NCBI GenBank assembly: GCA_963822045.1
Contig: CAWGGE010000001.1
Location: 5,385,231 to 5,417,230 of the forward strand
DNA length: 32,000 nt
Direction: 5' to 3'
Origin: an uncultured delta proteobacterium
GTDB taxonomy: Bacteria > Desulfobacterota > Syntrophobacteria > Syntrophobacterales > Syntrophobacteraceae
Every line of letters begins with the position of its first letter. Within the stretch, counting starts at the first letter, position 1. The notes beneath the pieces are model-generated. The model had not been told where the DNA came from and made no database searches. It worked only from the letters and a program-made list of their open reading frames with translations. Shown here one piece after another: positions 5,875 to 29,424 of the stretch. Made by a program: the position numbers and the translations under genes.

Positions 5875-5970
5875 GGTTTACTATCTCAAAACGTCTTCTT
5901 ATCTTGTTGGTTTCCATAATGTGGTTCACTATCTTACAATCTCATCTTATCTTGTTAGTTTTCAAAATGT
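5875..5970. repeat. two tandem 48-bp direct repeats (iteron-like), upstream of the Rep gene
   Basis: Repeat 1 (5875-5922) is ggtttactatctcaaaacgtcttcttatcttgttggtttccataatgt. Repeat 2 (5923-5970) is ggttcactatcttacaatctcatcttatcttgttagttttcaaaatgt. They match at 39 of 48 positions and share the core tcttatcttgtt. The surrounding sequence is AT-rich. Confidence 0.7.
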
Positions 5971-6591: not shown

Positions 6592-6675
6592 TTGACAATG
6601 TCAATCAACGTTAATTAACGGCACTATACATTATACTCTCGTTAATTAACGTTAGCCGCTTGACAATGTCAATCA
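6592..6675. promoter_or_regulatory. nested palindrome array (operator-like): P1-P2-19 nt-P2-8 nt-P1
   Basis: P1 is ttgacaAtgtcaa, a perfect palindrome, at 6592-6604 and 6660-6672. Each copy extends to the 16-nt direct repeat ttgacaatgtcaatca. P2 is cgttaattaacg, a perfect palindrome, at 6609-6620 and 6640-6651. The central spacer contains tatact. P1 contains a consensus -35 hexamer, TTGACA, on both strands. Confidence 0.6.
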
Positions 6676-7733: not shown

Positions 7734-7769
7734 TACATAATACCTCCCTCTCTATTACTGATCGGTATC

Positions 7770-7798
7770 AACTTAACAGACTGCTATAGCCATGTCAA
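7770..7798 (-). promoter_or_regulatory. sigma70-like promoter for the ATPase gene
   Basis: On the minus strand: TTGACA (7798-7793), a 17-nt spacer, then TAAGTT (7775-7770). It lies about 35 nt upstream of the RBS and ATG at 7733. Confidence 0.4.
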
Positions 7799-8415
7799 GA
7801 AATAATTTCCATTCTTCTTAATGAACCGAAATGTTCGCCAATTACGAAAAGTGGCATAACAATGTATACGCTCCTTCAGGATCGTACTCTCAATATATGC
7901 AAAAGATTATTAATCACGATTTAATGGTTTTGCCATGGAAATAATCTTTGTACCACTTACGAAAGGCGCTGCGCACGTAGATATCTATCCTATGGTAAGG
8001 ACTTTGCATTTCGGTTAGTGTCTGAAACTTGGATGAACCTATCTTCCTCCAAACCCACAATATTTTGTATAATTAAATATTAAATACACCAGCCACTACC
8101 TAATGCGACTGAATGTGACAGTTTTTTCCTGCGACCTGCATGTTCGCAAAGTCACCGCCTAAGAAAAATAAAGAAAAGTAAATAATTCTTTTCACAAAGT
8201 CCATGTTCAATTCAGTCCCCTTACCGTCGTAATTCGTTTTAATCATCATTTCAGTCGCTTATCGTGTTTCCTCGCATCCGAAATCCAATCGGACCTCAAA
8301 ATATATACACAATATGAAACAACAGAGAACGACCGGGAGCGCAAGGTATGAAAATTAGGTAACCGGTCGGAATTTACCCTAAAATTTTTCCCCTCTCTCT
8401 GAGAAAGGAAAGCGA

Positions 8416-8757
8416 ATGAACGAGGAATATCTGACAACTCCACAACTGAGCGACCGGATCAAGCACGCTCCACAAACCATCTACAACAATGTTAGTAAAG
8501 GGACATGGAAGCTCGGTCAACACTACGTTAAACCGAGCAGTAGAAAAATCTTATTCAAGTGGTCAGCTATTCACGCATGGCTCGAAGGATCATGCGGAGA
8601 CGGGCAGCGTGAACATGATCTGACCATTGAAGCCTGCGGATCACGTGATGAAGGATCATGTGGATCAGAACCCATCGGAGCCAATGTGGATGATGGAGAG
8701 AAGGGTCGGAATATCAAAAAGGCTTCCGTAAAGCCAAAGTGTAGGATCAACATCTAA
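8416..8757 (+). CDS. AlpA/excisionase-like HTH DNA-binding protein
   Basis: The N-terminus, LTTPQLSDRIKHAPQTIYNNVSKGTWKLGQHYVKPSSRKILFKWSAIHAWL, fits the AlpA / MerR-type excisionase pattern. It sits directly upstream of the integrase. An RBS (AAAGGAAAG) precedes the ATG. The C-terminal tail is odd and overlaps GGATCA repeats. Confidence 0.65.
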   Translation: MNEEYLTTPQLSDRIKHAPQTIYNNVSKGTWKLGQHYVKPSSRKILFKWSAIHAWLEGSCGDGQREHDLTIEACGSRDEGSCGSEPIGANVDDGEKGRNIKKASVKPKCRINI

Positions 8758-8790
8758 CTCGTCCCTGCTTCTGCACATTTTGAGGATGGT

Positions 8791-10218
8791 GTGTTATATC
8801 GTAAGAGTGAAAAGTCAGCCGAAGGAGGTGTCATATGGAAGGGTCATAGTATGAGTAATGCCGAAGAAACAACGGCAAAGGTGCTGGAATTTACCGGATC
8901 GAAGAAGCAGCCTAAGAACAAGCGGAAATCAGGCATAAATCGCAACAGATTCGGTTCCGTTCGGAATGTGAACGGGAAAGTGTATGTTAATTTCAGTTAT
9001 TTGAAGGAACCTGTCAGGGAACCATCTGGCTTGGTTTGGACTAACGAGAACATGCGTGCTGTCAGAGAACAACTTGATCGGATCGGTGTTCAAATCAAAT
9101 CTGGCACATTCAGGTATGCTGAGGTATTTCCCGAAAGCAAGCATCGGGAATTCTTTACCACCAAAGAGCGAGAATTGTTCGGGTTCAAAAAGAGTCCCAA
9201 GGATGTAGTATTCGGGGAATACATTTGGAAATGGTTTGATCTCAAAAAGGGCAACGGAACAGCGGGTGGAAGAACTCTTTACGCCTATAAAGGCTACATA
9301 AGGGGCTACCTCGAACCCTATTTCGGCAAACTGGACTTCAAGTCTATCAACGCCAACGTCATGGAGAAGTTCATTGCTTGGGCACGGGAACAGAATACAA
9401 AAGGAAAACCGGTCAAAATTGAGTCCGTCAAGAAGTACTTCGTTGTTCTTAGGATGGCTTTAACGGAGGCTACGATTGAGTTTGAATGGAAAGACTTTAA
9501 CCCATTCTTTGGCTTTAAGGGCTTCAAGAACCGCACCGATGTGCCTGTAACCTGTGTTGAAGTGGAAGAGGGCGACCTCGAAGACATTTTGGATGACGAG
9601 GGTGAACCAATTCTCCCATTCAGTATCGATGAAGTCAGAGTAATTATTCTGGTTCTCCCCGATCACTGGAAGCCGTTTTTTTGTTTTGCCGTATGCGCAG
9701 GTTTGCGACCGGGAGAATTAATCTGCTTGATGCCACATGATATCGACTGGGAGCAGGATACCGTCACGGTCAGAAGAGCATTGACCTTGGATATCAATGG
9801 GCGACCGATGGTTGGGAGAACCAAGAATAAATACAGCAGAAGAACAATCCGCCTCACCAAATCGATGAAGGAAGCTCTTCTTGCGCAGAAGAAGGTTTAT
9901 GACCAATTCGGCGGCAAATATTTTTTCTGTTCGCCTACCGGGTGCAGAGTTGATCTCAGCAATTTCAGGAACCAAGTGTGGATAAAGACTTTAAAGGAAG
10001 CGAAGGTCGGCTACCGTTCGATCAAACAGACACGTCATACCTTTGCGACCTTGGCAATCAGCCGTGGGGAGGATTTGTTGTGGATCTCCAAAGTCATGGG
10101 GCATGCGAACACCCAAATGGTTCATACACATTATGCTCGGTTCATTGAAAATGCCAGTGGGACACTGAATGGGTCGAAACTCGACACTCTGTTCGAGACT
10201 AACAGTAACGGCAGGTAA
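8791..10218 (+). CDS. int: tyrosine recombinase / phage-type integrase with an N-terminal arm-binding domain
   Basis: Catalytic-domain motifs are present: AGLRPGEL (Arg), TRHTFAT (His-x-x-Arg), MGHAN and HYARF (Tyr). The N-terminus has GSVRNVNGKVYVNFSY, an arm-type DNA-binding domain pattern. The start is ambiguous (GTG 8791 or ATG 8851). Confidence 0.9.
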   Translation: MLYRKSEKSAEGGVIWKGHSMSNAEETTAKVLEFTGSKKQPKNKRKSGINRNRFGSVRNVNGKVYVNFSYLKEPVREPSGLVWTNENMRAVREQLDRIGVQIKSGTFRYAEVFPESKHREFFTTKERELFGFKKSPKDVVFGEYIWKWFDLKKGNGTAGGRTLYAYKGYIRGYLEPYFGKLDFKSINANVMEKFIAWAREQNTKGKPVKIESVKKYFVVLRMALTEATIEFEWKDFNPFFGFKGFKNRTDVPVTCVEVEEGDLEDILDDEGEPILPFSIDEVRVIILVLPDHWKPFFCFAVCAGLRPGELICLMPHDIDWEQDTVTVRRALTLDINGRPMVGRTKNKYSRRTIRLTKSMKEALLAQKKVYDQFGGKYFFCSPTGCRVDLSNFRNQVWIKTLKEAKVGYRSIKQTRHTFATLAISRGEDLLWISKVMGHANTQMVHTHYARFIENASGTLNGSKLDTLFETNSNGR

Positions 10219-10261
10219 AGAGAGGGAAACATGATTTTGGCAAAATTTTGGCAAAATCAGC

Positions 10262-10312
10262 GCAAAAAACACGACAGGTTAGCCCATTTTGAGGCTAACC
10301 TGTTGATTTTCC
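10262..10312. terminator. bidirectional intrinsic terminator between the integrase and the tRNA
   Basis: A perfect 11-bp stem, acaggttagcc (10275-10285) pairing with ggctaacctgt (10294-10304), closes an 8-nt loop. An A-run (10265-10270) lies on the left and a T-run (10307-10311) on the right. It can therefore terminate both int (plus strand) and the tRNA (minus strand). Confidence 0.7.
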
Positions 10313-10316
10313 TGAA

Positions 10317-10388
10317 GCTGGCGATAGGAGTCGAACCTACAACCTGCTGATTACAAATCAGCTGCTCTGCCATTGAGCTACGCCAGCC
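10317..10388 (-). tRNA. tRNA-Thr (anticodon UGU); CCA not encoded
   Basis: The reverse complement folds as a cloverleaf. Acceptor stem: GCTGGCG/CGCCAGC. D arm: GCTC-AATGGCA-GAGC. Anticodon arm: GCTGA-TTTGTAA-TCAGC. Variable loop: AGGTT. T arm: GTAGG-TTCGACT-CCTAT. Discriminator: T. Total 72 nt. Confidence 0.85.
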
Positions 10389-12302: not shown

Positions 12303-13091
12303 GTGAGAGCAAATACCCGCAAAACCAGTTTAGGCGTTTTGGCAGTTGCCCTTTTCATGTCGATTGCTTTTGCCGGATCTTTGGCGTTGGCAGAAGGGCC
12401 CAGCAAGGATTGGACTGAACAACAGCTTCAGGAATTCGCAAAGAAACCGTGGACCCAGGCAGAGCTTAATGCCATGGGCAGAGCGCCCCGTTACGTTATC
12501 GAGAAAAAACTCGACCCGCGCTTTGAAGGCGAAAATCTGACCCAGGAGCAGCTTTTCCGCAACGGCCAACGCGAATTCAGAGCTATTTTCCTGCAGTACG
12601 GGATCGGAATTTCGTCCAACGATTTCTACAAGATATGGATGGAGCAAGAAGGTTTTAAAAACCCCAAAATAAAGCTTCTGGATGTTCGTTCAGAAGCAGA
12701 ATATGACCAGGGGCGCGTGCCCGGCGCCATTCGCGTTGACGCCGGTCTTGCCTATTGGGTCCTGGCGGGCAAGGCCCCTGACCCAACGGCCGATTACTAC
12801 CTTATGTGCAAAGGCGGAAGCCCCGAAAATGGCGGGAATCGCGGCGCCTATGTAAAGAAGATCATGTTGGACCTGGGCTACAGCGGCAAGATCACGAACA
12901 TTACCGACGGCTTCAGAGGCTGGGCTGAAAATGGGTTCCCGGTAGTCAACAATCACGGCCTGTTTATGTTGTTGCCCGGGACCTTCCAGGTTCCCGAGAA
13001 GGATTCTTTTGTGAAGGTAAAATCTATCGGTAACGATTCCTCCACTGCGTCCATGGGCCTGGCACAGAAGTGGGGACTCAAAGATTGGTAG
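12303..13091 (+). CDS. secreted rhodanese-domain sulfurtransferase
   Basis: A signal peptide (LAVALFMSIAFAGSLALA) is present. The rhodanese domain reads LLDVRSEAEYDQGRVPGAIRV...YYLMCKGGSPENGGNRGAY...GFRGWAENGFPV, with the active-site Cys loop. The start is GTG, preceded by the RBS AAAGGAG. Confidence 0.8.
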   Translation: MRANTRKTSLGVLAVALFMSIAFAGSLALAEGPSKDWTEQQLQEFAKKPWTQAELNAMGRAPRYVIEKKLDPRFEGENLTQEQLFRNGQREFRAIFLQYGIGISSNDFYKIWMEQEGFKNPKIKLLDVRSEAEYDQGRVPGAIRVDAGLAYWVLAGKAPDPTADYYLMCKGGSPENGGNRGAYVKKIMLDLGYSGKITNITDGFRGWAENGFPVVNNHGLFMLLPGTFQVPEKDSFVKVKSIGNDSSTASMGLAQKWGLKDW

Positions 13092-16735: not shown

Positions 16736-18928
16736 GTGGTGGGAGAAAGGCAGAATCGGCATGTGCTGGGGACAGTACTCTTCCCGATACTCGGCCTTGC
16801 CCTGATCGTACTCATTTGCATTGCCATATCGCGAGATGAGCATCAGCAGTGGAAGGTCTACCAGAGGGCGTACCTGGAAAATCGTGCAAAAATCCCGGAA
16901 TCCTCGTTAAAGGGCGCTCTCTCCGAAGCGGAGCTGCGAAACTGGGTGGAAGCCGCTCGACAGTTGCCGCTTCAAATAAAGGAAATGAGACCGGCTTTAA
17001 CCGGAAAGATAGAGCGTTGTCTGACCTGCCACGAAGGAATAGAGGAAATCAGTCCGTCGCACCCGGTGGATTCGTTCGGATGCGTGATCTGCCATGGCGG
17101 TGACGGACTTGGGGTTACTGAGGATATCGCACATAGGGGACTCATCGGCGGTCGAAATCCATCCGACCTGGCTGTCATTGATCAGACTTGCGCAAGGCCC
17201 GGGGGGCAATGTCATGCCGGGCGGAAGTTGGAGTCTCAGAACTCCGTTGACAGGGTCCGAAGGGGCGTTATGGCTACGATGAGCGGAGTCATAGCGAGTC
17301 TGAGGTATTCATGGAATGCCCAACCTGCGCCGGAAGCCGGTTACGCATCAGTTGGAGTGAAAGGCCCCGTTAGGAACGGAGGCGAGGAGACCTCGCTGTT
17401 GCCGGTTCCTCTGATGGACCATGTGCGGGGCGCGACACTCAAGGACCAGATGAACCAGTCCCTCACGATCTCAGGGCAGCCCGCCGACGATCAGTGGAGG
17501 AAGTTCTGTGCAAGGTGCCATATTTGGAGCGCGCGCGAGGACGGGCCATCCGCTCACTCGTCGGGTTGCGCCGCCTGCCATGCCTTATACAACCCCAAGG
17601 CCACTTATGAAGGACTTGACCCTACTCTGCCGAAAAACAAGCCGGGTTATGCCCTGCGGCATCAATTGACCACAGCGATACCAGTCGAGCAGTGCTTGCG
17701 CTGTCACAATCGTTCGGGGCGCATAGGACTCTCCTTTACTGGTCTTCAGGAGGCTGACGGCTATGGGACTCCATATCGCGGCGGCCTGGCCAATCTCCGG
17801 CAGCTTTCGGGCGAGAGGGATGTGCGCCACTTAGTTGCGGACATACATTTCGAGAAAGGCCTGGCCTGCACGGATTGCCATACGGGAAACGAAATTATGG
17901 GGGATGGCCATATATGCGGGCACATGCGCGAACAAGTCGAAATCCGTTGCATCGATTGTCATGGCGAACCCGGGCAGCCGCCCAGGACAAAAGTTTTGAC
18001 GCCCCGGGATGAGGAAGCGCTCTGGAAGGCAAGGGCGTTGAGAATGCCTGATATGGTATCCACCGAGGTGGGAATGACGCAACGAGGGACGCCTGTTTTG
18101 AATCTGCGGATGGAGGGCGGCAAGACTATTCTCAGGAGTAAGCTGGATCAAAAGGACCACCTGTGTCCGGTTATCAGCGATGACAAGTATCACCGTATTC
18201 CCGGACATGGACCATCTCGCATGGAATGCTCTACCTGTCACAGCCGCTGGGCCCCCCAGTGCTACGGCTGTCATGACTACCGGCGGCGTGGAGAGAGCAT
18301 GACGGATTCAATGCTCGGGAAGACAACCGATGGAGCGTGGCAGGAGACGAGGGATTTTTACCGTTATGAAAAACCGGCTCTGGGTATCAACTCACGGCAT
18401 CGAGTATCGGTAATTGTGCCTGGCTGTCAGGTCGTCTATACCGAGCTGGACGCTAATGGGAATGCTCTGCCCGGGCTTGAAGACAAAATCTTTACAGGCC
18501 CGGGTTTTACGCATGGCATCGTCTCTACGCCTATTTCGCCCCACACTACACGCACAGAAGTGAGATCATGCGAGGAGTGCCATTCGGATCCAAAGGCGAT
18601 GGGGATAGGGCAGGGGCTTTTTCAGGCCGGAAGGACCTGGGATGAGAATACGTTTACGCCACTGCTGAAGCCCGGGATCAATCCTATGGGATTTGCGTGG
18701 GAAAGCCTTTCAGACTCGCGGGGACTTCCCCTGGCCTCAACGACTCATTCCGGTGCGCGCCCCTTCAACGGAGAGGAGTTGAAACGGATACTCAGGGTGG
18801 CGCCGTGCCTGCCATGCCACGGCCGATATGACGATCCCATATGGACGGATCCAGCAGATCCCTTTGTTCGTGCGAAACTTCCTGCCCACCAGGAGAAGGT
18901 TGCCCGTTTTCTGGAAGGCCCCAAATGA
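16736..18928 (+). CDS. membrane-anchored multiheme cytochrome c (11 CXXCH plus 1 CX6CH)
   Basis: An N-terminal TM helix (LGTVLFPILGLALIVLICIAI) is present. The CXXCH motifs are CLTCH, CVICH, CARCH, CAACH, CLRCH, CTDCH, CIDCH, CSTCH, CYGCH, CEECH and CLPCH, plus CARPGGQCH. It is a paralog of the next gene. The start codon is ambiguous (GTG). Confidence 0.9.
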   Translation: MVGERQNRHVLGTVLFPILGLALIVLICIAISRDEHQQWKVYQRAYLENRAKIPESSLKGALSEAELRNWVEAARQLPLQIKEMRPALTGKIERCLTCHEGIEEISPSHPVDSFGCVICHGGDGLGVTEDIAHRGLIGGRNPSDLAVIDQTCARPGGQCHAGRKLESQNSVDRVRRGVMATMSGVIASLRYSWNAQPAPEAGYASVGVKGPVRNGGEETSLLPVPLMDHVRGATLKDQMNQSLTISGQPADDQWRKFCARCHIWSAREDGPSAHSSGCAACHALYNPKATYEGLDPTLPKNKPGYALRHQLTTAIPVEQCLRCHNRSGRIGLSFTGLQEADGYGTPYRGGLANLRQLSGERDVRHLVADIHFEKGLACTDCHTGNEIMGDGHICGHMREQVEIRCIDCHGEPGQPPRTKVLTPRDEEALWKARALRMPDMVSTEVGMTQRGTPVLNLRMEGGKTILRSKLDQKDHLCPVISDDKYHRIPGHGPSRMECSTCHSRWAPQCYGCHDYRRRGESMTDSMLGKTTDGAWQETRDFYRYEKPALGINSRHRVSVIVPGCQVVYTELDANGNALPGLEDKIFTGPGFTHGIVSTPISPHTTRTEVRSCEECHSDPKAMGIGQGLFQAGRTWDENTFTPLLKPGINPMGFAWESLSDSRGLPLASTTHSGARPFNGEELKRILRVAPCLPCHGRYDDPIWTDPADPFVRAKLPAHQEKVARFLEGPK

Positions 18929-20868
18929 AGCGGCTTTCATTCACTATCCTCACGATTGCTTCTATCCTGTTGCCTGGAGGGGAGTTGGGCTGGGCATCCT
19001 CTTGTTTGAAATGTCATCCTCAAGTCCAGGTGATGTTTCATGCCGCCTCATGTATCGATTGCCATCTTGGCCATGACGATAAGCCCGACAAACCCTCGGC
19101 GCATGAGGGAATGATTGCCAATCCATCCGACTTCACGAATCCTGGTTTTGCTTGCGGCCGTTGTCATGAAGAAGAGACCCGACAGGTAAATCGAACTCTT
19201 ATGGCTACCGCGGCCGGTATTATCAACCAGACGCGGTTTCTGTGGGGAGCGCAGCAGGACGTGCTGGCCCGATATGGGGCCAGAGAGGTCGATGGACTCA
19301 AGGCATTGCCCAGGGGAGATGAATCCGGGTCCCTGGCCGATGATTTGCTGCGCCGCCGATGCCTTCGATGTCATTTGGGGTCGAACGGCGTCATCGGTTC
19401 TGCGGACAACCAGAATGATGATACACCTGCCGGCGCCGGTTGCGCCGCGTGCCACGTCCTGAACCGGACAAACGGGATTTCGCCCAACGAGCAGCTTATC
19501 GGCCCGGGTACACAAGGGTCCACTCAAGCCCACCGGGTGTCCACAGCCATACCGACGTCCCAGTGCCTGAGGTGCCACAATGGAAACCGTGCAGGTGCGG
19601 ACTATGCCGGGCTGTTCGAGCGGGACCACTCTCTTGCCTACAACTTCGAGGCCGTAGATCCTGACGTTGCTCCGCACCTTATGAAGCACGCTTACCATTA
19701 TCTCCTTCCCGATATTCATTATGAACGGGGGATGCATTGCATCGATTGCCATCCGGTAGAAGAACTCATGGGGGAAGGCAAAATCCACTCCCAGTCACAG
19801 GACCAGGTCGGAGTGCGATGCGCGGATTGCCATGGTCTTCCGGGAAAACCGCCAAGGACGCGAGAGGTTCCGGCCTCCGATATTCGGGCTCTAAGGGCCG
19901 CACAGGCTAATGGCCACTACGATCTCCAAGCCGGCCGCAGGGTTATCGAAACCTCCGGGGGACATCTGTTGACGAACACGGCGCAAGAGGACGGCGCTTT
20001 TTTTCTCACATCGAAAGTCGATGGTAAAGTGCACCGGATACCTGTTTTAGGGAGTGAACCCTCCGGGACGGAACCTCTCAATCATCGCATCCCCGGGCAC
20101 CTTGACAGGATGGAATGCAGCGCCTGTCACGCGGCGTGGACCTTCCAGGACTTGGGTCTACATCTGGTGCGGCTGGACTATCCAGATTACGGGCCTTGGG
20201 GTTGGCTGACAACCCAGGGAGATCCTCAAGCCCGGGAGGTGCTGGAAAGTAATTTTCTAAAGCCTCGCGAACAGTGGGTTGCGCCGAGATCACGGGATTG
20301 GCTGACAGGCCGTTCCGAAATTGGAGTCTGGCTTGGGGGCTATTCGATGCGCCGTTGGGAGGGCCGGATTCTGGGAATGGATTCCCGGGGCCTTGTCAGC
20401 GCCATTAGACCTCAATACCAGTACTGGCTCAGTTGGGTTGATGCGCAGGGGAAGACGCTTCTGGATTCAACCATTCCTCGATTGAGCGACGGTCGCGCGG
20501 CGCTGGCATGGAACCCCTATGCTCCTCACACGATAAGGACCCAAACTGTAGATTGCTGGGATTGTCATGGAAATCCACGGGCTATGGGCTTAGGGCCGAC
20601 GGTCGTCCGGGCGAAAGACGGGCGGCGTGCCGGGTTGGGCAGATCACAAGCTGACGGTCTTGGAATCGATTTTGACCTGGATCGGGTAATCGACGACATG
20701 GGGCAGCCTGTTCAGACGTCTTCAGTGGTTGGAGCCGGTTTTTTGAACGCGGCACAACTTGAGAGAATGTCGGCCCATAATCCCATCTATATAAGATACC
20801 TCCTTGAGTTTTTCGAAGGCAAGGAGGCCTATGGAGATCCCGCTGGATTTACAGGCCCCAAAAAGTGA
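18925..20868 (+). CDS. periplasmic multiheme cytochrome c (10 CXXCH), paralog of the upstream gene
   Basis: The likely start is ATG 18925, overlapping the upstream TGA (ATGA); the track ORF starts at 18841. The signal peptide is MKRLSFTILTIASILLPGGELGWASS. The motifs are CLKCH, CIDCH, CGRCH, CLRCH, CAACH, CLRCH, CIDCH, CADCH, CSACH and CWDCH. It shares the blocks AIPxxQCLRCHN and HRIPGHxxxRMECSxCH with the upstream protein. Confidence 0.9.
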   Translation: MKRLSFTILTIASILLPGGELGWASSCLKCHPQVQVMFHAASCIDCHLGHDDKPDKPSAHEGMIANPSDFTNPGFACGRCHEEETRQVNRTLMATAAGIINQTRFLWGAQQDVLARYGAREVDGLKALPRGDESGSLADDLLRRRCLRCHLGSNGVIGSADNQNDDTPAGAGCAACHVLNRTNGISPNEQLIGPGTQGSTQAHRVSTAIPTSQCLRCHNGNRAGADYAGLFERDHSLAYNFEAVDPDVAPHLMKHAYHYLLPDIHYERGMHCIDCHPVEELMGEGKIHSQSQDQVGVRCADCHGLPGKPPRTREVPASDIRALRAAQANGHYDLQAGRRVIETSGGHLLTNTAQEDGAFFLTSKVDGKVHRIPVLGSEPSGTEPLNHRIPGHLDRMECSACHAAWTFQDLGLHLVRLDYPDYGPWGWLTTQGDPQAREVLESNFLKPREQWVAPRSRDWLTGRSEIGVWLGGYSMRRWEGRILGMDSRGLVSAIRPQYQYWLSWVDAQGKTLLDSTIPRLSDGRAALAWNPYAPHTIRTQTVDCWDCHGNPRAMGLGPTVVRAKDGRRAGLGRSQADGLGIDFDLDRVIDDMGQPVQTSSVVGAGFLNAAQLERMSAHNPIYIRYLLEFFEGKEAYGDPAGFTGPKK

Positions 20869-21250
20869 GGAATACAAGGACCGATGCCATGGCGATGAAG
20901 ATTATCTGATGAAAACCGAACTGGTACTGCTTCAAAGGGGCGTGCCCGCCGAAATGCGGAATCCAAGGCAGGCAGGCCACGAATATGAGCGCAGCCACAG
21001 GAAATGCGAACCCGGCGATCAGGGGTGGGAAATGGCGGAGGAGAACCTGGAGCCAAATGATGAGCCAGGGAGCTTTGATCTCGGCGGGTGCCGGGCTACC
21101 CGGCTCCACTGCATTATAACCTGCCGGCATGGCCAGCGCGAGGCCGATGAGTATGAGTGTCAGGATCATAACCGTGAGGAACTCCCTTGCAAGGAGTTCA
21201 CGGCGCACAATGAGCCTGTGATTGTTTTGGGGTTCGGTCATTTGCGTCAA
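20849..21250 (-). CDS. cytochrome b C-terminal / b6f subunit-IV-like membrane protein
   Basis: It has three hydrophobic helices and the motif KAPWLIIWLQVLLRHFPPLIAG. This resembles the PEWYF/KAPWYFLGLQELL signature of the cytochrome b C-terminal domain and PetD. ATG 21241 is an alternative start to TTG 21250. Its 3' end overlaps the cytochrome gene by 20 nt (convergent). Confidence 0.7.
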   Translation of the reverse strand: MTQMTEPQNNHRLIVRRELLAREFLTVMILTLILIGLALAMPAGYNAVEPGSPAPAEIKAPWLIIWLQVLLRHFPPLIAGFAFPVAALIFVACLPWIPHFGGHAPLKQYQFGFHQIIFIAMASVLVFLTFWGL

Positions 21251-21293
21251 GACAATCCTCTGAATTTATATTCCTAACCGGTTGCAGGAGCAT

Positions 21294-21770
21294 ATGTCAA
21301 GGAACCAGGAAGACATGCTTTTCAATTCAACTGTGGGGCGCCGCAGGTTCTTTTCTTATTTTGGATGGGCTCTGGCGGGGCTGGCCTCGGCATCTATGAG
21401 TTGGATCACGTGCAGGTTTCTTGCGGGGGACCAGACACATTCAGGGTTGGAACCGTGCACTTTCGGGCCCCCGGGGGCTTATCCCGTTGGCACGGCCGCA
21501 AAAAAGGGCAGGGTGGTACTCTTTCGGGACAAGGATGGGTTTTGGGCTGTCTCTGATGTTTGTACTCATCTTGGTTGCCGGCCGGCTTTTCTTCAGGAGC
21601 AGAATATTTTCGTATGCCCATGTCATGGCAGCCGGTTTGACAGCGAAGGCCGCCTGCAGGCCGGACCGGCAACTCATGGCATGGCTTTGGCCGCGCTGCG
21701 TCTTGATGCTCAGGGGGCTCTTGTGGCATACCCCAAAGAAAAAGTCCTGCCCGGATACAGGTTTGTGTGA
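21294..21770 (+). CDS. Rieske [2Fe-2S] protein with a twin-arginine signal
   Basis: A TAT motif (GRRRFFSY) is followed by a TM helix. The cluster ligands are CTHLGC and CPCHGS. The RBS AGGAG lies 5 nt before ATG 21294; the track starts at TTG 21282. Confidence 0.9.
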   Translation: MSRNQEDMLFNSTVGRRRFFSYFGWALAGLASASMSWITCRFLAGDQTHSGLEPCTFGPPGAYPVGTAAKKGRVVLFRDKDGFWAVSDVCTHLGCRPAFLQEQNIFVCPCHGSRFDSEGRLQAGPATHGMALAALRLDAQGALVAYPKEKVLPGYRFV

Positions 21771-22396
21771 TGAAGCTGGATAATTTCATAGGGCATATCC
21801 ACCCTGTAAAGATCTCGGAAGAACGAGTCCGCATAGGAACCACGTTTTGCCTTGGCGGGGCAGCCTTTTTCCTGTTCATTGTTTTGGGGATAAGCGGGCT
21901 TCTTCTCGCCGTCTATTATCTTCCAACGGCAGAGGGGGCACGAGCGGGAATTCATGACCTCGACCACGTAATTCCTTTCGGTTGGCTAATGAGGTCTATC
22001 CACTTCTGGGCCGGCCAACTCATGGTTGCCGCATTGGTGCTTCATACCGCCAGGGTTGTTGTTGCTGGCGCGTATATGCCCCCGAAACATCTTAACTGGC
22101 TTGTCGGAATAATCCTGTTCATCCTGACTGCCGGGCTTGATTTTTCGGGTTATGTTTTAAGATGGGATGCGCAGACCTTCTGGGCGGCCCAAGTTGTGTG
22201 TCAACTGCTGGGACAGGTACCCGTTATTGGAGGCGGGCTGCAGCGGGTTTTTGCAGGTGGTTCCGAAATGTCTGAAGTTGGCTTGTTGCGGTTTTATGTG
22301 ATTCACTGCCTGATAGGACCAAGTCTGGCATTGGCTTTCATTATGTATCACTTCTGGCGAGTGAGAAGGGATGGAAGACTTGGCCAACTGCTTTGA
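21770..22396 (+). CDS. cytochrome b6-type (four-helix, N-terminal half) cytochrome b
   Basis: The start overlaps the Rieske stop (TGATG). His pairs lie in helix B (SIHFWAGQLMVAALVLH, 14 apart) and helix D (VIHCLIGPSLALAFIMYH, 15 apart, b6-like). A GYVLRWD motif is present. The protein is 208-209 aa, so the C-terminal domain is encoded separately. Confidence 0.9.
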   Translation: MKLDNFIGHIHPVKISEERVRIGTTFCLGGAAFFLFIVLGISGLLLAVYYLPTAEGARAGIHDLDHVIPFGWLMRSIHFWAGQLMVAALVLHTARVVVAGAYMPPKHLNWLVGIILFILTAGLDFSGYVLRWDAQTFWAAQVVCQLLGQVPVIGGGLQRVFAGGSEMSEVGLLRFYVIHCLIGPSLALAFIMYHFWRVRRDGRLGQLL

Positions 22397-22616: not shown

Positions 22617-22865
22617 ATGAATTGCAAGCAGATCGTTCTTATAGGCGTGTGCCTGTTGTTCCTCGTTGGAGTGTCGATGGTTCGCACCGGTGAATGCCAG
22701 GAGACTAAAGGAAATGAAACCACAGCCACGGCCCCTGCTCCGCAGGGTACCGCGCCGGCTAATCCCGCAGCTCCTTCTGATGATAAGGCAAAAGAAAAGG
22801 AAAAAGCCCAGACAGATACATCCGCAAAACCCGCTGAAAAAAAGAGAAGCTACGAGGGGTGCTGA
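22617..22865 (+). CDS. small secreted low-complexity (Ala/Pro/Lys/Thr-rich) protein, 82 aa
   Basis: The signal peptide is MNCKQIVLIGVCLLFLVGVSMV. The mature part is TGECQETKGNETTATAPAPQGTAPANPAAPSDDKAKEKEKAQTDTSAKPAEKKRSYEGC, with Cys near both ends. It has its own promoter-like and terminator elements. Confidence 0.5.
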   Translation: MNCKQIVLIGVCLLFLVGVSMVRTGECQETKGNETTATAPAPQGTAPANPAAPSDDKAKEKEKAQTDTSAKPAEKKRSYEGC

Positions 22866-23250: not shown

Positions 23251-23278
23251 TTGACGTCGGATCATGGAATGTTATGAT
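23251..23278 (+). promoter_or_regulatory. sigma70-like promoter upstream of the YedE-TusA-DsrE operon
   Basis: TTGACG (23251-23256), a 16-nt spacer, then TATGAT (23273-23278). It lies about 65 nt upstream of ATG 23342. Confidence 0.4.
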
Positions 23279-23341: not shown

Positions 23342-24526
23342 ATGAGCAATAATTTTCTGTCGATAAAGCTTAAAGAGGGCTATCGCTTTCTTTTCCACCA
23401 GCAATGGCCGGATATGGTGGGAGGGGTCTTGTTGGGTCTGCTGTCCATTATGATCGTAATGTGGTCCCGCCCCTGGGGCATTGTTGGAGGGATGCGCAAC
23501 TGGGCAGACTGGATTTTCTACGGCGTTGGCATTATTTCGAAAGCCCCGGAGCATCCTCTCTTTTTCTCGTCATCAATCATGGATATCGGCCTCCTGCTGG
23601 GCGCCTTCGCCGCAGCACTGATGGCGAAGGAATTTGCTCTGCGCACCTCTCCCAAGCTCGAGATCATGAAGGGCTTTTGCGGGGGGATACTAATGGGAGT
23701 CGGTTCTTCCCTGGCCATGGGGTGCAACGTCGGGGCCTTCTATAGTACACTGATAAATCTTTCAGCGAACGGCTTTACCATGATGGCGGGATTGATCGTT
23801 GGTGCGTACATCGGACTACGTTATCTTCTCTGGGAACTGGAAAATTTCCCGGCGCCTCCGGCTGCGACGGTCAAGCCTAAGCAGAATGTTAACGCGTTCG
23901 ACTTAAAAGCGGTCCAGCCATATGCGGGAGGCGCAGTACTCCTGGGCATGCTGATTGCTGCCTATATTTACAACCGGTATGATTACACGGAAATTGGTGG
24001 CCTGCTTCTTTTCGGAATGTTTTTCGGGATCGTTCTCCAGCGTTGCCGTTTCTGTTTTGTACGTGCCTTTCGCGACCCCTTCATGACGGGCGACGCTGCA
24101 GTAGTGAAGGCGGTTGTGGTCAGCGTCCTGATCGGAACCGCCGGCGTTGCCATAATGAAGTGGAACGGATTCAGGCCGGCATCTCTTTACGTGGTCCCAA
24201 CCTTCGGATGGGGTTCCCTGCTTGGCGGTATGATTTTTGGAATCGGCATGGTGATAGCGGGCGGATGTGGAAGCGGGACACTCTGGAGGGTAGCCGAGGG
24301 ACACCTCAAACTATGGGTGGCGCTTATTTCATTTGCCTTAACCAACTCGTTGATGAACATATTTTTAGTGGGCACGGGGTTGAAGGCCAAGCTCGGCTTG
24401 GCAGTTTTCCTGCCGGACGTCTTCGGCTGGCAGGGAGCTCTTGGAGTCATCGCTTTGGTTCTATTCCTCTGGTATTTCGTTTTGTCCTGGAATGAGGAAA
24501 CGAACAAATTTACCGTTGGCGTATAA
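23342..24526 (+). CDS. yeeE: YeeE/YedE-family sulfur-compound (thiosulfate-type) transporter
   Basis: A polytopic membrane protein with the family's conserved Cys-containing loops: SLAMGCNVGAF, LQRCRFCFV and IAGGCGSGTLW. Confidence 0.9.
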   Translation: MSNNFLSIKLKEGYRFLFHQQWPDMVGGVLLGLLSIMIVMWSRPWGIVGGMRNWADWIFYGVGIISKAPEHPLFFSSSIMDIGLLLGAFAAALMAKEFALRTSPKLEIMKGFCGGILMGVGSSLAMGCNVGAFYSTLINLSANGFTMMAGLIVGAYIGLRYLLWELENFPAPPAATVKPKQNVNAFDLKAVQPYAGGAVLLGMLIAAYIYNRYDYTEIGGLLLFGMFFGIVLQRCRFCFVRAFRDPFMTGDAAVVKAVVVSVLIGTAGVAIMKWNGFRPASLYVVPTFGWGSLLGGMIFGIGMVIAGGCGSGTLWRVAEGHLKLWVALISFALTNSLMNIFLVGTGLKAKLGLAVFLPDVFGWQGALGVIALVLFLWYFVLSWNEETNKFTVGV

Positions 24527-24587
24527 GTGAAATGAGATCCAGGTTCTTTCAGGCACACTATCCGTCTTATTTTACAGGAGAATTTGC

Positions 24588-24824
24588 ATGGACGATATTA
24601 AACCCAATGAAACCTTGGATGCACGCGGTCTCAGTTGCCCCATGCCTCTTTTGAAGACCAAAAAAGCCATTGAAAAACTTGCTTCCGGTCAAATTCTGGA
24701 GATCTTGGGAACGGACCCCGGGACCGCCAACGACCTTCCGAAATGGGCGAAGCGATCCGGTCACGACTTTCTCGGCGAAAAGGAAGACGAAGGATTCAAC
24801 CGGTACTTTTTACGGAAAAAGTAG
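24588..24824 (+). CDS. tusA: TusA/SirA-family sulfur carrier protein
   Basis: The signature LDARGLSCPMPLLKTKKAI (the CPxP active-site Cys motif) is present in a 78-aa protein. The RBS CAGGAG precedes the start. Confidence 0.9.
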   Translation: MDDIKPNETLDARGLSCPMPLLKTKKAIEKLASGQILEILGTDPGTANDLPKWAKRSGHDFLGEKEDEGFNRYFLRKK

Positions 24825-24873
24825 CTCTGTTGAGGCTTAACCCCTTGGATATCTCTTTAAGCGGGGAGTTATT

Positions 24874-25182
24874 ATGGCTGAAAAACTTGGCATTTTCGTG
24901 TCCTCCGACAAGAGTTTACGCCATGTCATTGAAACGGCGAAAGCTGCCGAAAGAGCCGGCAAAGAGGTAATTGTCTTCTTCACACATAAGGGGATTTTTC
25001 TCACCCAGGAGCCCGAGTTTGAGGAATTGACCGGCCATGCAGAGTACTCCGTGTGCAATGTCGGCTGGGAGGCCAATGGATTGAAAGGGAAAACAGTCCC
25101 CGGAATGGATTCAAAGGGATTTGGCACACAAGCCCGGCACGGAGAGATAATTGAAGACTGTGACAAATATCTGGTCCTTTAA
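24874..25182 (+). CDS. DsrE-like small sulfur-relay protein
   Basis: A 102-aa protein with a DsrE-fold pattern: LGIFVSSDK, EVIVFFTHKGIF, and a conserved-position Cys in YSVCNVGWEANGL. Confidence 0.65.
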   Translation: MAEKLGIFVSSDKSLRHVIETAKAAERAGKEVIVFFTHKGIFLTQEPEFEELTGHAEYSVCNVGWEANGLKGKTVPGMDSKGFGTQARHGEIIEDCDKYLVL

Positions 25183-25253
25183 CAGGTTCAAGAGCTGAAT
25201 TGTTTTGGCGGCTGATGATTTTTTCGGCGGGTTAAAGTTATCGGGGGAGAGAC

Positions 25254-25535
25254 ATGAATAAAGTTGCGTTTCTCGTTCATTCAAAAGAGGAGTTGTGGGA
25301 GGGGCTTCGCTCGAGCCTCGGTCTGATCGTTGAGAACAATGATGTGATCATGGCTGTCCTGGACCAGGAAGTGGAGATGACTCCTGAGTTTAGAGAAAAT
25401 CTAGACTGGTTTCTCGAAATGGAGGGAAAGATCTACTCGAATCGCGCGGCCAATCAGGAACACGGGTTTGAGCTGATAACCATCGAAGGGCTGGGCGAAA
25501 AACTCAAGGGAATGGATTTTATCGTTCCCTTTTAA
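25254..25535 (+). CDS. DsrE/DsrF-fold-like conserved hypothetical protein (no Cys)
   Basis: A 93-aa protein with an alpha/beta pattern (KVAFLVHS...DVIMAVLDQ...GKIYSN...DFIVPF). By position it is the fourth gene of the YedE-TusA-DsrE operon. Confidence 0.5.
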   Translation: MNKVAFLVHSKEELWEGLRSSLGLIVENNDVIMAVLDQEVEMTPEFRENLDWFLEMEGKIYSNRAANQEHGFELITIEGLGEKLKGMDFIVPF

Positions 25536-25584
25536 GGTGCTCCAATATACTCGGGAGCAATCCAAAACAGGCCAGGAGTAGGTA

Positions 25585-25758
25585 ATGAAACTCTTACAGG
25601 TGTTCCGTTCCGAACCAAGTCCGGATGTGCTCAAATTGGCGGATATCATCTCTGAGGGTAATGAGACCATCCGCATCGACCTATTCCAAGGGGATGTCGA
25701 TTATGATCGACTGGTGGAGTTGATATTCACTTGCGATAAGACCGTAAGTTGGTGGTAA
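25585..25758 (+). CDS. 57-aa DsrH/TusB-like mini-protein (below the ORF-track length cutoff)
   Basis: The RBS AGGAG (25574-25578) precedes the ATG at 25585. The sequence is MKLLQVFRSEPSPDVLKLADIISEGNETIRIDLFQGDVDYDRLVELIFTCDKTVSWW. Its ends resemble TusB/DsrH (MLHTLHRSP... and ...IDYTDFVRLTVKHPSQMAW, recalled from E. coli TusB), but the middle is missing. Confidence 0.5.
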   Translation: MKLLQVFRSEPSPDVLKLADIISEGNETIRIDLFQGDVDYDRLVELIFTCDKTVSWW

Positions 25759-25859
25759 GGGCCACGACGAAATTGCACGACCTGCACTTTTTGATATGTG
25801 ATGAGTGCTTGAATTTCAGTTCAGAAGAAACTCAAGCGGCTGTTTAACGAGCTTTTTCG

Positions 25860-25888
25860 GATCCCGCTTCTGCGGGATCTTTAATTTT
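25860..25888 (+). terminator. intrinsic terminator after the sulfur-relay operon
   Basis: The stem is gatcccgc (25860-25867) pairing with gcgggatc (25872-25879). The loop is ttct, followed by tttaatttt. Confidence 0.6.
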
Positions 25889-25920
25889 GAGATCTTCATT
25901 TTTTGGAAGGAGAACAATAA

Positions 25921-26349
25921 ATGGTTTTCTGCCGAGGTGGAGAAGATGCTTTCTGTAGTTTTGTAACGGATGGTACTCACGAGTTGCTTTGCGATATTCC
26001 AGTTGACCGTGGAGGAAGAGACACCGGTTTTAGGCCGTCTACGCTCATCGAGGGGGCATTGGCAGCCTGTGTCAACATCACATTGAGACATTACGCCCAG
26101 ACCAGGGGAACCAAGCTGTCGGATGTCGTGGTTAGAGTTTCGATGAACAATCAAGATCCGAAAAAGATCTTAATGGAGCAGCAAGTCCAGCTTATCGGAG
26201 ACCTGAGCGAAAAGGAAAGAGAGGATCTTCTCCAAGTTGCCGAACGATGCCCTGTCAATAAGATCCTGTCCGGCGAATTCGCGTTTGTCCTGGAGGAATC
26301 GCGCTCGGATATCAAATTGGAACCGGCGCCAAAGAAGATTTTTGAATAG
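25921..26349 (+). CDS. OsmC/Ohr-family peroxiredoxin-like protein
   Basis: The pattern is RPSTLIEGALAACVNITL...VAERCPVNKIL, the two conserved Cys contexts of the OsmC family. The RBS GGAAGGAG precedes the start. Confidence 0.75.
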   Translation: MVFCRGGEDAFCSFVTDGTHELLCDIPVDRGGRDTGFRPSTLIEGALAACVNITLRHYAQTRGTKLSDVVVRVSMNNQDPKKILMEQQVQLIGDLSEKEREDLLQVAERCPVNKILSGEFAFVLEESRSDIKLEPAPKKIFE

Positions 26350-26504
26350 TGGGTAGTGGGTGGTGAATCGTGAATGACGGTTTAAAAAGGAAAAGTAATG
26401 CGGGCCTAGTCTGTTTAGCTGGTTCATGGTAACATCATCTGCACCTTGTCAAATTGACGTTCTTTAAATCTTGACCTCTCAGGGCGAGAAGGATCGACGG
26501 GTCT

Positions 26505-28658
26505 ATGAGTTATTTCTCGCGCTTAAGGCTACGTGGCCGCTTGATATGTCTTGTGCTCCTTGCCGCTCTTCCACTGCTTGGAATGACACTGTTCACCGCC
26601 AGTGAAGATCATCGCATGGAAAAGCTCCAGGTGGAAGCGGACACTCTTCGCGCCACAAGGCTTGCCGCGGGGGATATCGCCCAAGTTATCGAGGGGGCTC
26701 GTCAACTTCTGATCGGTCTTGCTGAAATGCCCGAAGTGCAACGAGGAAACTCAGTCGCCTGCAGTGAGCTTTTTACTAATCTTTTGAACCAATATCCTTA
26801 CTACGTCAATCTTGGCACCATTGACTCCGATGGAAACATCATCTGCAGCGGACTGCAGCCCGAAGAGCGTGTCAATCTGTCGCAACATGCTTATATTCGA
26901 CGCGCTTTCGCAACGCGTAGATTTGTCATCAGCGGTTATCAGATTGAAGCGATAACCGGCATTCCCGTAATGACCTTTGTCCACCCCGTTCAAAATGGTT
27001 CAGGCCCTGTGAAATCTGCCGTCTTTGCCTCATTGGACCTGGGCTGGTTCAGGAAGCTCGAACTCGAGACCCAATTGCCTCTGGGAGCTGAACTTCTTGT
27101 TCTTGACTATAACGGAGCGGTGCTTGCCCGTTATCCGTTCGCAAGAAAATGGGTAGGAGAGTTGATGCCGGCAGAACTTGTCGTACTTGCCGGCATGGGC
27201 GAAGGCCAGCATTCACTCGTGAGTTTAGCCGGCTTGGATTCTACCCAGCGGTTATATGGAATCACCACGATACGTGCAGCTTATGAAACGGACCTGTATG
27301 TCAGCCTTGGAGTTTCCGAGGAAGCCGTCTTAAGCCGGCTGAGCTGGCTGTATTTTAGAAACATCGCCGGAGTTGGTGTGGTAACTGTGCTTGCGCTGCT
27401 CGCAGCCTGGTTCGGTGGAGAGGTATTCATCTTGCGCAGGGTGAAACAGCTCGTGAATGCAACTAGACAGTTGGCTTCGGGAGATCTTGGTGTTCGCATA
27501 GGGCCGCTTAAAGAAAAGGATGAACTCAGCATGCTGGCCGGCTCTTTTGACGATATGGCTGAATCGCTCGAACAGAGAACCCGGCAGGCACAAAGGGCGG
27601 AGACCTGGTATCGGACCCTGGTCGAACAAATTCCGATGATCACCTATATAGCCCCTCTGGACAGGGCCAAGGGCCTTCTTTACGTAAGCCCTCAAATCGA
27701 AATGATTCTTGGATTTTCGCCCGAAGAATGGATACAGGACCCCGAACTCTGGCTGAAACAGCTCCATCACGGAGATTGCGAGCGTGTGCTGGCAAAAGTT
27801 TATGGGAATTACCCCGAGATTGTGGATGCCGGATTTGTATGCGAATATAGAATTCGGGCCAAAGATGGGCGTATTGTTTGGTTTCGTGATGAGGCCATTT
27901 TGGTGTCGGACGAGCTCGACCAACCGTTTCTGCAGGGTATTATGCTGGATATAACGCAGAGCAAACATGCCGAGGAGCAACTGAAGAATTCTCACGAACA
28001 ACTGCGTGGGTTTGCTGAACACGTTGAGTCTGTGCGTGAAGAGGAACGTGCCTGGATTGCCCGTGAGATTCACGATGAACTCGGGCAGATTCTTACCGGT
28101 TTGAAAATAGACATCTCATGGCTGGATAAAAAGTTGACCAGTATCTGCAGCGGGGATCCGAATCATGTTCTTTCAATGAAGACGAGGTCAATGAAGGAAC
28201 TGATTGATACAACCATTCAAAGCGTAAGAAAAATCAGTACGAGATTGAGGCCCGGAATACTCGACGATTTGGGTCTGCTGGCGGCCGTTGAATGGCAGGC
28301 ATCTGAATATCAGACCAGGATGGGAATTAAATTCGAGGTTATATCCAATATAGATGGGATGGAGTTGGATGAAAGGCGATCTTCCGCTGTCTTTCGGATT
28401 TTTCAAGAACTCCTGACAAATATTGCCCGGCATGCGAACGCAACGAAGGTCTCCATAAGCTTGAAAGAAAGGGGTGCAACCCTGATACTCAAGGTAAGAG
28501 ACAATGGCAGGGGCATTACGGAAAAAGAGAGTGATAATGTGAAATCGCTCGGAATATTGGGTATGCGCGAGCGTGCTTTGCTATTGGGCGGCAAGTTCAG
28601 CATCAAAGGCATGCCGGGCGATGGCACAAGGGCTACCGTTAAAATCCCCATAGCTTGA
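26505..28658 (+). CDS. sensor histidine kinase: periplasmic Cache-like domain, TM, HAMP, PAS, HisKA_3, HATPase_c
   Basis: It has an N-terminal TM helix and a periplasmic domain of about 260 aa (YYVNLGTIDSDGNIICSG, Cache-like). A second TM helix is followed by HAMP (LASGDLGVRIGPLKEKDELSMLAGSFDDMAESL). Then come a PAS domain (YRTLVEQIPMITYI...) and an H-box, REIHDELGQILTGLK (NarX/DesK type). The ATP-binding motifs are LLTNIARHANA and DNGRGI...GILGMRERA. Confidence 0.9.
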   Translation: MSYFSRLRLRGRLICLVLLAALPLLGMTLFTASEDHRMEKLQVEADTLRATRLAAGDIAQVIEGARQLLIGLAEMPEVQRGNSVACSELFTNLLNQYPYYVNLGTIDSDGNIICSGLQPEERVNLSQHAYIRRAFATRRFVISGYQIEAITGIPVMTFVHPVQNGSGPVKSAVFASLDLGWFRKLELETQLPLGAELLVLDYNGAVLARYPFARKWVGELMPAELVVLAGMGEGQHSLVSLAGLDSTQRLYGITTIRAAYETDLYVSLGVSEEAVLSRLSWLYFRNIAGVGVVTVLALLAAWFGGEVFILRRVKQLVNATRQLASGDLGVRIGPLKEKDELSMLAGSFDDMAESLEQRTRQAQRAETWYRTLVEQIPMITYIAPLDRAKGLLYVSPQIEMILGFSPEEWIQDPELWLKQLHHGDCERVLAKVYGNYPEIVDAGFVCEYRIRAKDGRIVWFRDEAILVSDELDQPFLQGIMLDITQSKHAEEQLKNSHEQLRGFAEHVESVREEERAWIAREIHDELGQILTGLKIDISWLDKKLTSICSGDPNHVLSMKTRSMKELIDTTIQSVRKISTRLRPGILDDLGLLAAVEWQASEYQTRMGIKFEVISNIDGMELDERRSSAVFRIFQELLTNIARHANATKVSISLKERGATLILKVRDNGRGITEKESDNVKSLGILGMRERALLLGGKFSIKGMPGDGTRATVKIPIA

Positions 28659-28785
28659 TTGAGGGCATGCAACGGGATTCATGCAGGGGATGTGATGCGG
28701 CGCAGTTCCGGCCCCGGATGTTTTAATCGATAGAGTGTCATGCGTTTTTTCGATTAAGAGAGCGAAGCTTGGGAGAAGCGCGATT

Positions 28786-29424
28786 ATGAAAGTTCTCATT
28801 GCCGACGATCATGCCATTGTACGACGTGGTTTGAAACTCATCCTTTCAGAAGAATTCGACAGGATTATCTTCGGCGAAGCCCGCACCGGTCAGGAGGTGC
28901 TCGACCTGGTCTGGAAGCAGGATTGGGATATCGTGGTGCTGGATATCACAATGCCGGGCAGAAGCGGGCTTGAGGTATTAAAAGAGTTGAAACAGTTGCG
29001 CCCGAAGCTGCCGGTTCTCATCTTGAGCATGCATTCGGAAGATCAGTTCGGAATGCGCGTGCTCAAAGCCGGCGCCGCCGGGTACATGACCAAGGAGAAT
29101 GTTCCGGAGGAACTCGTTAAGGCCATTAAGAAAGTACTTGCGGGTGGAAAATATATCAGCCCCGGCCTTGCTGAACAGTTGGCATTCAATTTGGAGGAAG
29201 ACACCGGAAGACCGCCGCACGAGAAACTCTCAGATCGCGAGTACCAGGTGATGTGTATGATTGCGTCCGGACGAACGGTAAAGGAGATAGCCGATGAGCT
29301 GGCCCTCAGCATTAAGACCATCAGCACCTATCGGACCCGGATTTTGGAAAAACTGAAAATGAAAAGCAGTGCGGAACTCACGTACTATGCGGTAAAGAAT
29401 AAGCTGGTTGATTGTGAAGTGTAA
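28786..29424 (+). CDS. NarL/FixJ-type response regulator (REC plus LuxR-type HTH)
   Basis: The sequence begins MKVLIADDH and includes IVVLDITMPGRSG (phospho-acceptor Asp) and LSMHS. The C-terminal HTH is LSDREYQVMCMIASGRTVKEIADELALSIKTISTYRTRILEKL. The track ORF begins upstream at 28735. Confidence 0.9.
   Translation: MKVLIADDHAIVRRGLKLILSEEFDRIIFGEARTGQEVLDLVWKQDWDIVVLDITMPGRSGLEVLKELKQLRPKLPVLILSMHSEDQFGMRVLKAGAAGYMTKENVPEELVKAIKKVLAGGKYISPGLAEQLAFNLEEDTGRPPHEKLSDREYQVMCMIASGRTVKEIADELALSIKTISTYRTRILEKLKMKSSAELTYYAVKNKLVDCEV

Follow-up and report, generated by a model that had tools for sequence, protein, structure and literature searches.

Five consecutive genes on the plus strand of a 32,000-nucleotide (nt) stretch of DNA from an uncultured delta proteobacterium (contig CAWGGE010000001.1, positions 5,385,231 to 5,417,230; hereafter the window) can be firmly assigned to the yedE-tusA-dsrEFH type II cluster, formerly called the YTD (YedE-TusA-DsrE) cluster. 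Their membership in this published family is firm because it is based on direct homology together with synteny. It is probable that the five genes form an operon encoding a sulfur relay that feeds DsrC and DsrAB in the oxidative direction. As an instance of a known, recently characterized system, the locus is typical; it is found in an uncultured host and adds one uncultured Desulfobacterota-type genome to the roughly 1000 known to carry DsrEFH type II. On the current reading, the host is a candidate for sulfur oxidation or for the oxidative branch of disproportionation, and not for sulfate reduction alone. The genes and the putative control sites that flank them are as follows (lengths in amino acids, aa; ORF, open reading frame):

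23342-24526, plus strand: yedE/yeeE-like gene, predicted membrane sulfur transporter of 394 aa (ORF list, Pfam Sulf_transp; GGGGG ribosome-binding site)
24588-24824, plus strand: tusA, predicted sulfur carrier of 78 aa (Pfam TusA; AGGAG ribosome-binding site; predicted active Cys17 in CPMP)
24874-25182, plus strand: dsrE type II, 102 aa (homology and synteny; predicted active Cys61 in SVCNVG)
25254-25535, plus strand: dsrF type II (YTD Chp1), 93 aa, C-terminus VPF (homology and synteny)
25585-25758, plus strand: dsrH type II (YTD Chp2), mini-protein of 57 aa, C-terminus SWW (homology and synteny)
23251-23278, plus strand: promoter-like site, TTGACG-16-TATGAT with an extended TG (10 of 12 consensus positions; 64 nt 5' of yedE)
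25859-25890, plus strand: terminator-like hairpin (25859-25880; 9-bp stem with 6 GC pairs) followed by a T tract (consensus match; 100 nt past the dsrH stop)

The original prediction, which was made from the letters of the window, had given these five genes with their location and order, and both were confirmed by the ORF list and by independent gene callers. On four public contigs with an identical DsrE-like protein, the latter returned five genes whose lengths and order are the same. The motifs quoted in that prediction (CPMP in TusA, SVCNVG in the DsrE-like protein and three cysteine loops in the YedE-like protein) were also present. Ribosome-binding sites of the AGGAG/GGGGAG type lie 5-9 nt 5' of all five start codons. 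The intergenic gaps among the five genes are 49-71 nt, and no terminator-like site was found in a scan of these gaps (24527-25584). The promoter and terminator that had been proposed were found where expected; however, promoter-like and terminator-like sites were no more numerous than in shuffled sequence (3 versus 3.4 and 4 versus 4.5), and phylogenetic footprinting found no conservation in relatives of the region upstream of yedE. The two sites are only consistent with an operon, and are not evidence for one.

According to the accounts of Umezawa et al. (2020) given in PMC13293266 and PMC12998232, the YTD cluster is made up of a yedE-related gene, tusA, a dsrE-like gene and the genes of two conserved hypothetical proteins. 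Plum-Jensen et al. (ISME J 2026; PMC13293266) reported that the last three genes encode a sulfur transferase, DsrEFH type II, and found it in 985 genomes, mostly of Desulfobacterota and Nitrospirota, 73.9% of which have reductive-type dsrAB. The DsrE cysteine is conserved in 99.3% of the family, and the genes co-occur with dsrAB, dsrC and dsrMK (PMC13293266). The recombinant proteins of Electronema aureum form a 1:1:1 complex that is mostly heterotrimeric, in which Cys67 of DsrE takes sulfur from TusA reversibly; transfer from the complex to DsrC is one-way, and Cys67 is not strictly required for it in vitro (PMC13293266). A second study (PMC13047784, 2026) independently reached the same structural conclusion and noted that the F-like and H-like sequences align improperly with canonical DsrF and DsrH. 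Both papers agree with the guess, made in the original prediction, that the 93-aa and 57-aa proteins are DsrF-like and DsrH-like. The accompanying statement that the biochemical role of the cluster was still unsettled is outdated, as sulfur transfer among TusA, DsrE and DsrC of E. aureum has been demonstrated (PMC13293266).

The relationship of the window genes to this family was examined by scanning one genome per species with the family alignment of the DsrE-like protein, which yielded 65 true loci. Nearly all are from metagenome-assembled genomes (MAGs) of Desulfobacterota; one is archaeal and two belong to cultured strains. The genes for E, F and H are all present in 63 of the 65, and the other two loci end at a contig edge directly after E. 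In 62 of the 63 complete loci, E, F and H are tightly colinear. Upstream sequence of at least 2 kb is available for 56 loci; of these, 24 show the order yedE-tusA-EFH, 12 show tusA-EFH and 20 show EFH alone. The arrangement is not due to chance, because E-F-H is conserved across the related loci. The composition of the window cluster, its order, which is shared with those 24 of 56 loci, and the presence of homologs in listed carriers all support the YTD-type call that had been made for it. Likewise, the E-F-H order on one strand (24874-25758) and the conserved DsrE cysteine are those of DsrEFH type II.

The nearest representative genome is a MAG whose DsrE is 88% identical to that of the window. 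Both cultured strains, Desulfobulbus rhabdoformis DSM 8777 (locus L063) and Desulfocarbo indianensis SCBM (L025), have homologs of all three proteins in the same order. Identity to the window proteins is 44% for E, 26-34% for F and 47% for H in the former, and 57%, 41% and 42%, respectively, in the latter. Table S5 of PMC13293266 lists D. rhabdoformis DSM 8777 as a carrier of YeeE-TusA-DsrEFH type II and D. indianensis SCBM as a carrier of DsrEFH type II. The window cluster therefore shares with the published system its five genes and their order, a single conserved DsrE cysteine and a DsrH of about 57 aa (6.8 kDa), and differs in that its host is from an uncultured lineage, its concatenated EFH is 37-47% identical to that of the cultured carriers, and its gaps are wider than the medians of the related loci (21 nt for E-F and 13 nt for F-H).

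Hidden Markov models (HMMs) were built solely from distant loci, those of D. rhabdoformis and D. indianensis among them, in which DsrE identity to the window does not exceed 63%. As a proxy for the models of Plum-Jensen et al., for which the family criterion is >80 bits per subunit, these HMMs gave the window proteins scores of 153.9 (E), 110.9 (F) and 83.0 bits (H). Cys61 of DsrE is invariant in two alignments (24 of 24 and 65 of 65 homologs); as the sole invariant cysteine, it would be the counterpart of Cys67 in E. aureum DsrE. Across 63 loci, the median length of the DsrH-like relatives is 57 aa, and these proteins end in (S/T/C)WW; the F proteins typically end in VPF. The DsrH type II family comprises 227 clusters at 50% identity, nearly all of 55-61 aa, and the reported mass of E. 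aureum DsrH type II (6814 Da) fits the 57 aa of the window protein.

The first two genes were recognized by general family models. The YedE-like protein matched Pfam Sulf_transp (PF04143) with an E-value of 1.7e-48 (166.2 bits against a cut-off of 27 bits), and its three cysteine loops contain C128 (MGCNVG), C238 (RFCFV) and C309 (GGCGSG). The first of these cysteines is kept in 22 of 25 family members and the other two in all 25. The TusA protein matched Pfam TusA (PF01206) at 1.3e-26 (92.6 bits, cut-off 28.6 bits), and all 46 family members examined keep Cys17 of its CPMP motif; the protein scored below the NCBIfam TusA equivalog cut-off (61.4 versus 78 bits). The family searches proposed in the original prediction thus bore out Sulf_transp and TusA, but not the three small proteins: the window DsrE was a sub-threshold match to Pfam DsrE (PF02635; E-value 0.0054, 17.3 bits, cut-off 22.7 bits), although the same model matched 19 of 24 E-family proteins (best E-value 1.3e-5), F and H had no Pfam match, and NCBIfam gave no match for any of the three.

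Public annotation offers little help with these proteins. Database searches returned 72 close relatives of the DsrE-like protein, 25 of the DsrF-like protein and 10 of the DsrH-like protein, which were called ‘hypothetical’ or ‘peroxiredoxin family protein’ where they were named. The DsrE type II family as a whole is publicly annotated as ‘peroxiredoxin family protein’ or ‘hypothetical protein’, which appears to be a systematic misannotation. With these labels, sequence-only annotation by public pipelines misses the system.

The structural models of the smaller subunits point in the same general direction as the family assignment. [quoted passage not shown] The model of H (pLDDT 84.7) has a beta-alpha-beta-alpha-beta topology. 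The best PDB matches of the E-family HMM were a TyrRS (0.0067) and 3pnx, a ‘putative sulfurtransferase DsrE’ (0.19). Paralogy between E and F, or between F and H, was not detected with hhalign.

The proposed function follows the pathway described in PMC13293266. The YedE/YeeE-like protein, with its three cysteines, would bring sulfane sulfur into the cytoplasm, most likely derived from polysulfide or elemental sulfur (S0) and possibly from thiosulfate. The sulfur would be loaded onto Cys17 of TusA as a persulfide and handed to Cys61 of DsrE, which would form a small heterotrimer together with the DsrF-like (93 aa) and DsrH-like (57 aa) proteins, and DsrE would then pass it to DsrC. Persulfidated DsrC would be converted to the DsrC trisulfide, which a reductive-type DsrAB acting in reverse would oxidize to give sulfite. 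Such a relay would act in the oxidation of sulfide or S0, or in the oxidative half of disproportionation. The genes present, their order, their family membership (by homology and synteny) and the invariant cysteines are shown on the window itself, while the complex and the Cys-dependent TusA<->DsrE->DsrC transfer are known for the E. aureum orthologs only and would apply to the window proteins by analogy. For this host, we infer which substrate is imported, in which direction the relay runs in vivo, that dsrAB and dsrC are present and that the relay is linked to DsrAB.

Two sets of observations weigh against this proposal. One concerns the kinship of the small proteins with canonical DsrEFH: neither F nor H matched any Pfam family at E<=1, including DsrH (PF04077); Foldseek searches with the F monomer gave nothing at E<=0.001, with unrelated Rossmann-like folds scoring alike; the H monomer gave generic half-Rossmann matches only, with no DsrH or TusB among them; the E, F and H family HMMs produced no useful match to DsrE, DsrF, DsrH or Tus proteins among all PDB sequences; and comparison with E. 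coli TusB, TusC and TusD by hhalign and HMMER gave scores within the range of 1000 shuffles. The other set concerns the pathway. The window covers 32 kb of a contig of roughly 6.2 Mb, and within it dsrAB, aprAB, sat and a bona fide dsrC are absent. A 235-aa tandem DsrC-like protein is encoded about 9 kb downstream of dsrE, just past the right end of the window (L069 19467-20174, minus strand). Its first domain has a CysB-like ‘GACKLAGL’ motif, and it is not a bona fide DsrC because the C-terminal CysA tail is absent from both domains. In addition, E. aureum TusA also passes sulfur straight to DsrC in vitro, and the operation of reductive-type DsrAB in reverse is unproven at the enzyme level (PMC13293266).

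The weak similarity to canonical DsrEFH agrees with the published identity of less than 25% between type II and type I. Canonical DsrEFH type I of Allochromatium vinosum (PDB 2HY5) resembles the proposed system in that its three subunits relay sulfur from TusA to DsrC and its one active cysteine is on DsrE, and the resemblance extends to the sub-threshold match of the E family to Pfam DsrE and to the DsrE/DsrF-like best match of the F model. It differs in that the window subunits are much smaller (102, 93 and 57 aa) and have no significant sequence similarity to it, and in that the window H has no detectable monomer fold match. The dsrAB associated with type I is of the oxidative type, and that associated with type II is of the reductive type (PMC13293266). 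An H profile searched against 1.84 billion representatives recovered family members of 55-61 aa and a few longer proteins, and no canonical DsrH of about 100 aa with two matched stretches.

The E. coli TusBCD complex, the other known E/F/H-type heterotrimer, has the same architecture, and in HMM comparisons H pairs best with TusB and F with TusC, through in-register matches of both termini. Residues 12-28 and 39-54 of H pair with residues 11-27 and 78-93 of TusB (L068 1679-1966, minus strand) at 1-3 bits, which is within the shuffled range. The N-terminal RSEPSPDVLKLADIISEGNET and C-terminal VDYDRLVELIFTCDKTVSWW of H resemble the ends of TusB (the C-terminal one being IDYTDFVRLTVKHPSQMAW), a resemblance that is not statistically significant. 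These alignments give the impression that type II DsrH may be a TusB/DsrH protein that has lost about 38 central residues, by which it is shorter than TusB. TusBCD also differs from the proposed relay in its acceptor and pathway.

The original prediction cited the proposal of the cluster as a marker of sulfur disproportionation, and the cluster could be a module dedicated to the disproportionation of S0 or thiosulfate, and not a general feeder of DsrC. This idea goes back to Umezawa et al. (2020), and has proteomic support from three strains; levels of TusA are raised in Dissulfuribacter thermophilus and those of YedE in Desulfurivibrio dismutans (PMC12998232, PMC13490349), and the full cluster occurs in all S0 disproportionators surveyed (PMC12998232). 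Its value as a marker is, however, now disputed. Of 63 cultured disproportionators, only 25 have dsrEFH type II, sulfate reducers are numerous among the carriers (35 of 46 carrier isolates are described as reducers of sulfate or sulfite) and carriage is uncorrelated with the sulfur species disproportionated (PMC13293266). The cluster is also found in strains that tested negative for disproportionation, and the same study ranks it among the best disproportionation candidates, yet not as usable as a lone marker (PMC12998232). A dedicated role is thus unlikely, and it overlaps with the proposed DsrC-feeding relay, on which the oxidative branch of disproportionation would also depend.

The membrane protein and its TusA-like neighbor also invite comparison with YeeE/YeeD (TsuA/TsuB) and YedE/YedF, in which a Sulf_transp protein with conserved cysteines is likewise followed by a TusA-family protein. 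Were the window genes of the former kind, they would mediate assimilatory thiosulfate uptake as in E. coli, with the small proteins as accessories of cysteine synthesis. The shared family and the yeeED-like gene order speak for this, but the TsuA models of NCBIfam matched only partially (92-113 bits against cut-offs of 400-645) and TsuB/YeeD scored 24.7 bits against 147.5; in vitro, no persulfide was formed from thiosulfate on TusA, DsrEFH type II or DsrC of E. aureum (PMC13293266); and the tight linkage to dsrEFH type II and the distribution among Dsr-bearing lineages argue for dissimilatory use. Assimilatory uptake is consequently very improbable. Even less credible is that the genes encode a YedE/YedF (FdhT) pair for selenium handling or a relay of the TusBCD kind for tRNA 2-thiouridine. 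YedE/FdhT is the best NCBIfam model of the membrane protein and aligns over its full length, YedF models match the TusA-like protein weakly, and TusB and TusC give the best alignments to the termini of H and F, as described above. Set against this, the scores are far under the cut-offs (150 versus 350 bits and 46.6 versus 79 bits), the Tus similarities do not exceed those of shuffled sequences, no selD, selenoprotein gene, tusE or mnmA is located nearby, and the distribution of the family tracks dsrAB and not tRNA modification. The assimilatory, selenium and tRNA-thiolation readings were rejected on the NCBIfam cut-offs and on gene context, the window genes falling under all the equivalog cut-offs and being linked to dsrEFH type II instead of assimilation or selenium genes. 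Because it scores below these cut-offs, the YedE-like protein is best classed as a Sulf_transp superfamily member that belongs to neither characterized subfamily (YedE/FdhT or TsuA).

With the yedE-tusA-dsrEFH type II cluster assigned to its family, the only aspect of the locus that goes beyond the literature consulted is a recurrent neighborhood of Rieske/cytochrome b and multiheme cytochrome genes. The module adjoins yedE on its upstream side, where a gene for an SSF transporter also lies directly upstream of the cluster:

16736-22396, plus strand: genes for two multiheme cytochromes c with 11 and 10 CxxCH motifs, an ORF of 157 aa, and genes for a Rieske protein and a short, 209-aa cytochrome b

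Homologous modules were found no more than 6 kb from dsrEFH type II in 6 of the 65 related loci, in varied arrangements (L007 355-1457, L053 284-2524, L054, L064 6822-11869, L048 6806-11656 and L056). The module of L064 is on the same strand and immediately 3' of dsrH, and those of L048 and L056 are convergent. DsrE identity to the window is 44-51% in the module-bearing lineages, but 76% in L007. Judged qualitatively from the raw locus count, it is unlikely that a single-copy module would recur beside dsrEFH type II by chance.

One interpretation is that the relay is coupled to this module, which would act as a quinol:cytochrome electron outlet for reverse-Dsr sulfur oxidation and would mark a cable-bacteria-like or MISO-like capacity. 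Such coupling fits the models of PMC13047784, in which quinol electrons from sulfur oxidation exit via a Rieske/cytochrome b complex to periplasmic cytochromes, and the expression data for Desulfurivibrio alkaliphilus, in which transcription and/or upregulation of YeeE, TusA and multiheme cytochromes accompanies the oxidation of sulfide with Fe(III) oxide (PMC12545173). The proposal is tentative and, on balance, doubtful. If functional, the neighborhood would tie the cytoplasmic relay to a specific electron outlet, and sulfide oxidation in an uncultured Desulfobacterota lineage would be linked to periplasmic or extracellular acceptors (e.g., Fe(III) oxides).

An 82-aa ORF (22617-22865, plus strand) lies between the cytochrome b gene and yedE. 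It encodes a signal-peptide-like N terminus and a Pro/Ala/Lys-rich tail, and it was gene-called on public contigs and had no family match. About 10 kb upstream of the cluster is the gene for a 262-aa rhodanese-domain protein (12303-13091, plus strand), and weak rhodanese homologs occur just downstream of dsrH in L003, L007, L012 and L051. The rhodanese-domain protein may be an additional sulfurtransferase partner. On the other side of the cluster, starting about 40 nt past the terminator-like site, are genes for an OsmC-like protein, a Cache-HAMP-PAS-HisKA_3 sensor kinase and a LuxR-type response regulator (25921-29424, plus strand). This neighborhood is kept in the closest relatives only, and the kinase and regulator may control the cluster.

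In the left part of the window, a low-GC block (0.39-0.46) at 4466-10387 encodes a protein with a PriCT_1 primase C-terminal domain, a PF03090 replicase, an AAA_25 ATPase and a tyrosine integrase, and adjoins a tRNA gene (10316-10387, minus strand); it is probably a mobile element integrated at the tRNA site. Beyond it, an ORF of at least 1481 aa (2-4444, minus strand) runs off the left end of the window and is a predicted RHS/YD-repeat protein, with matches to RHS repeats (2e-34) and DUF6531 and a weak match to a transglutaminase core.

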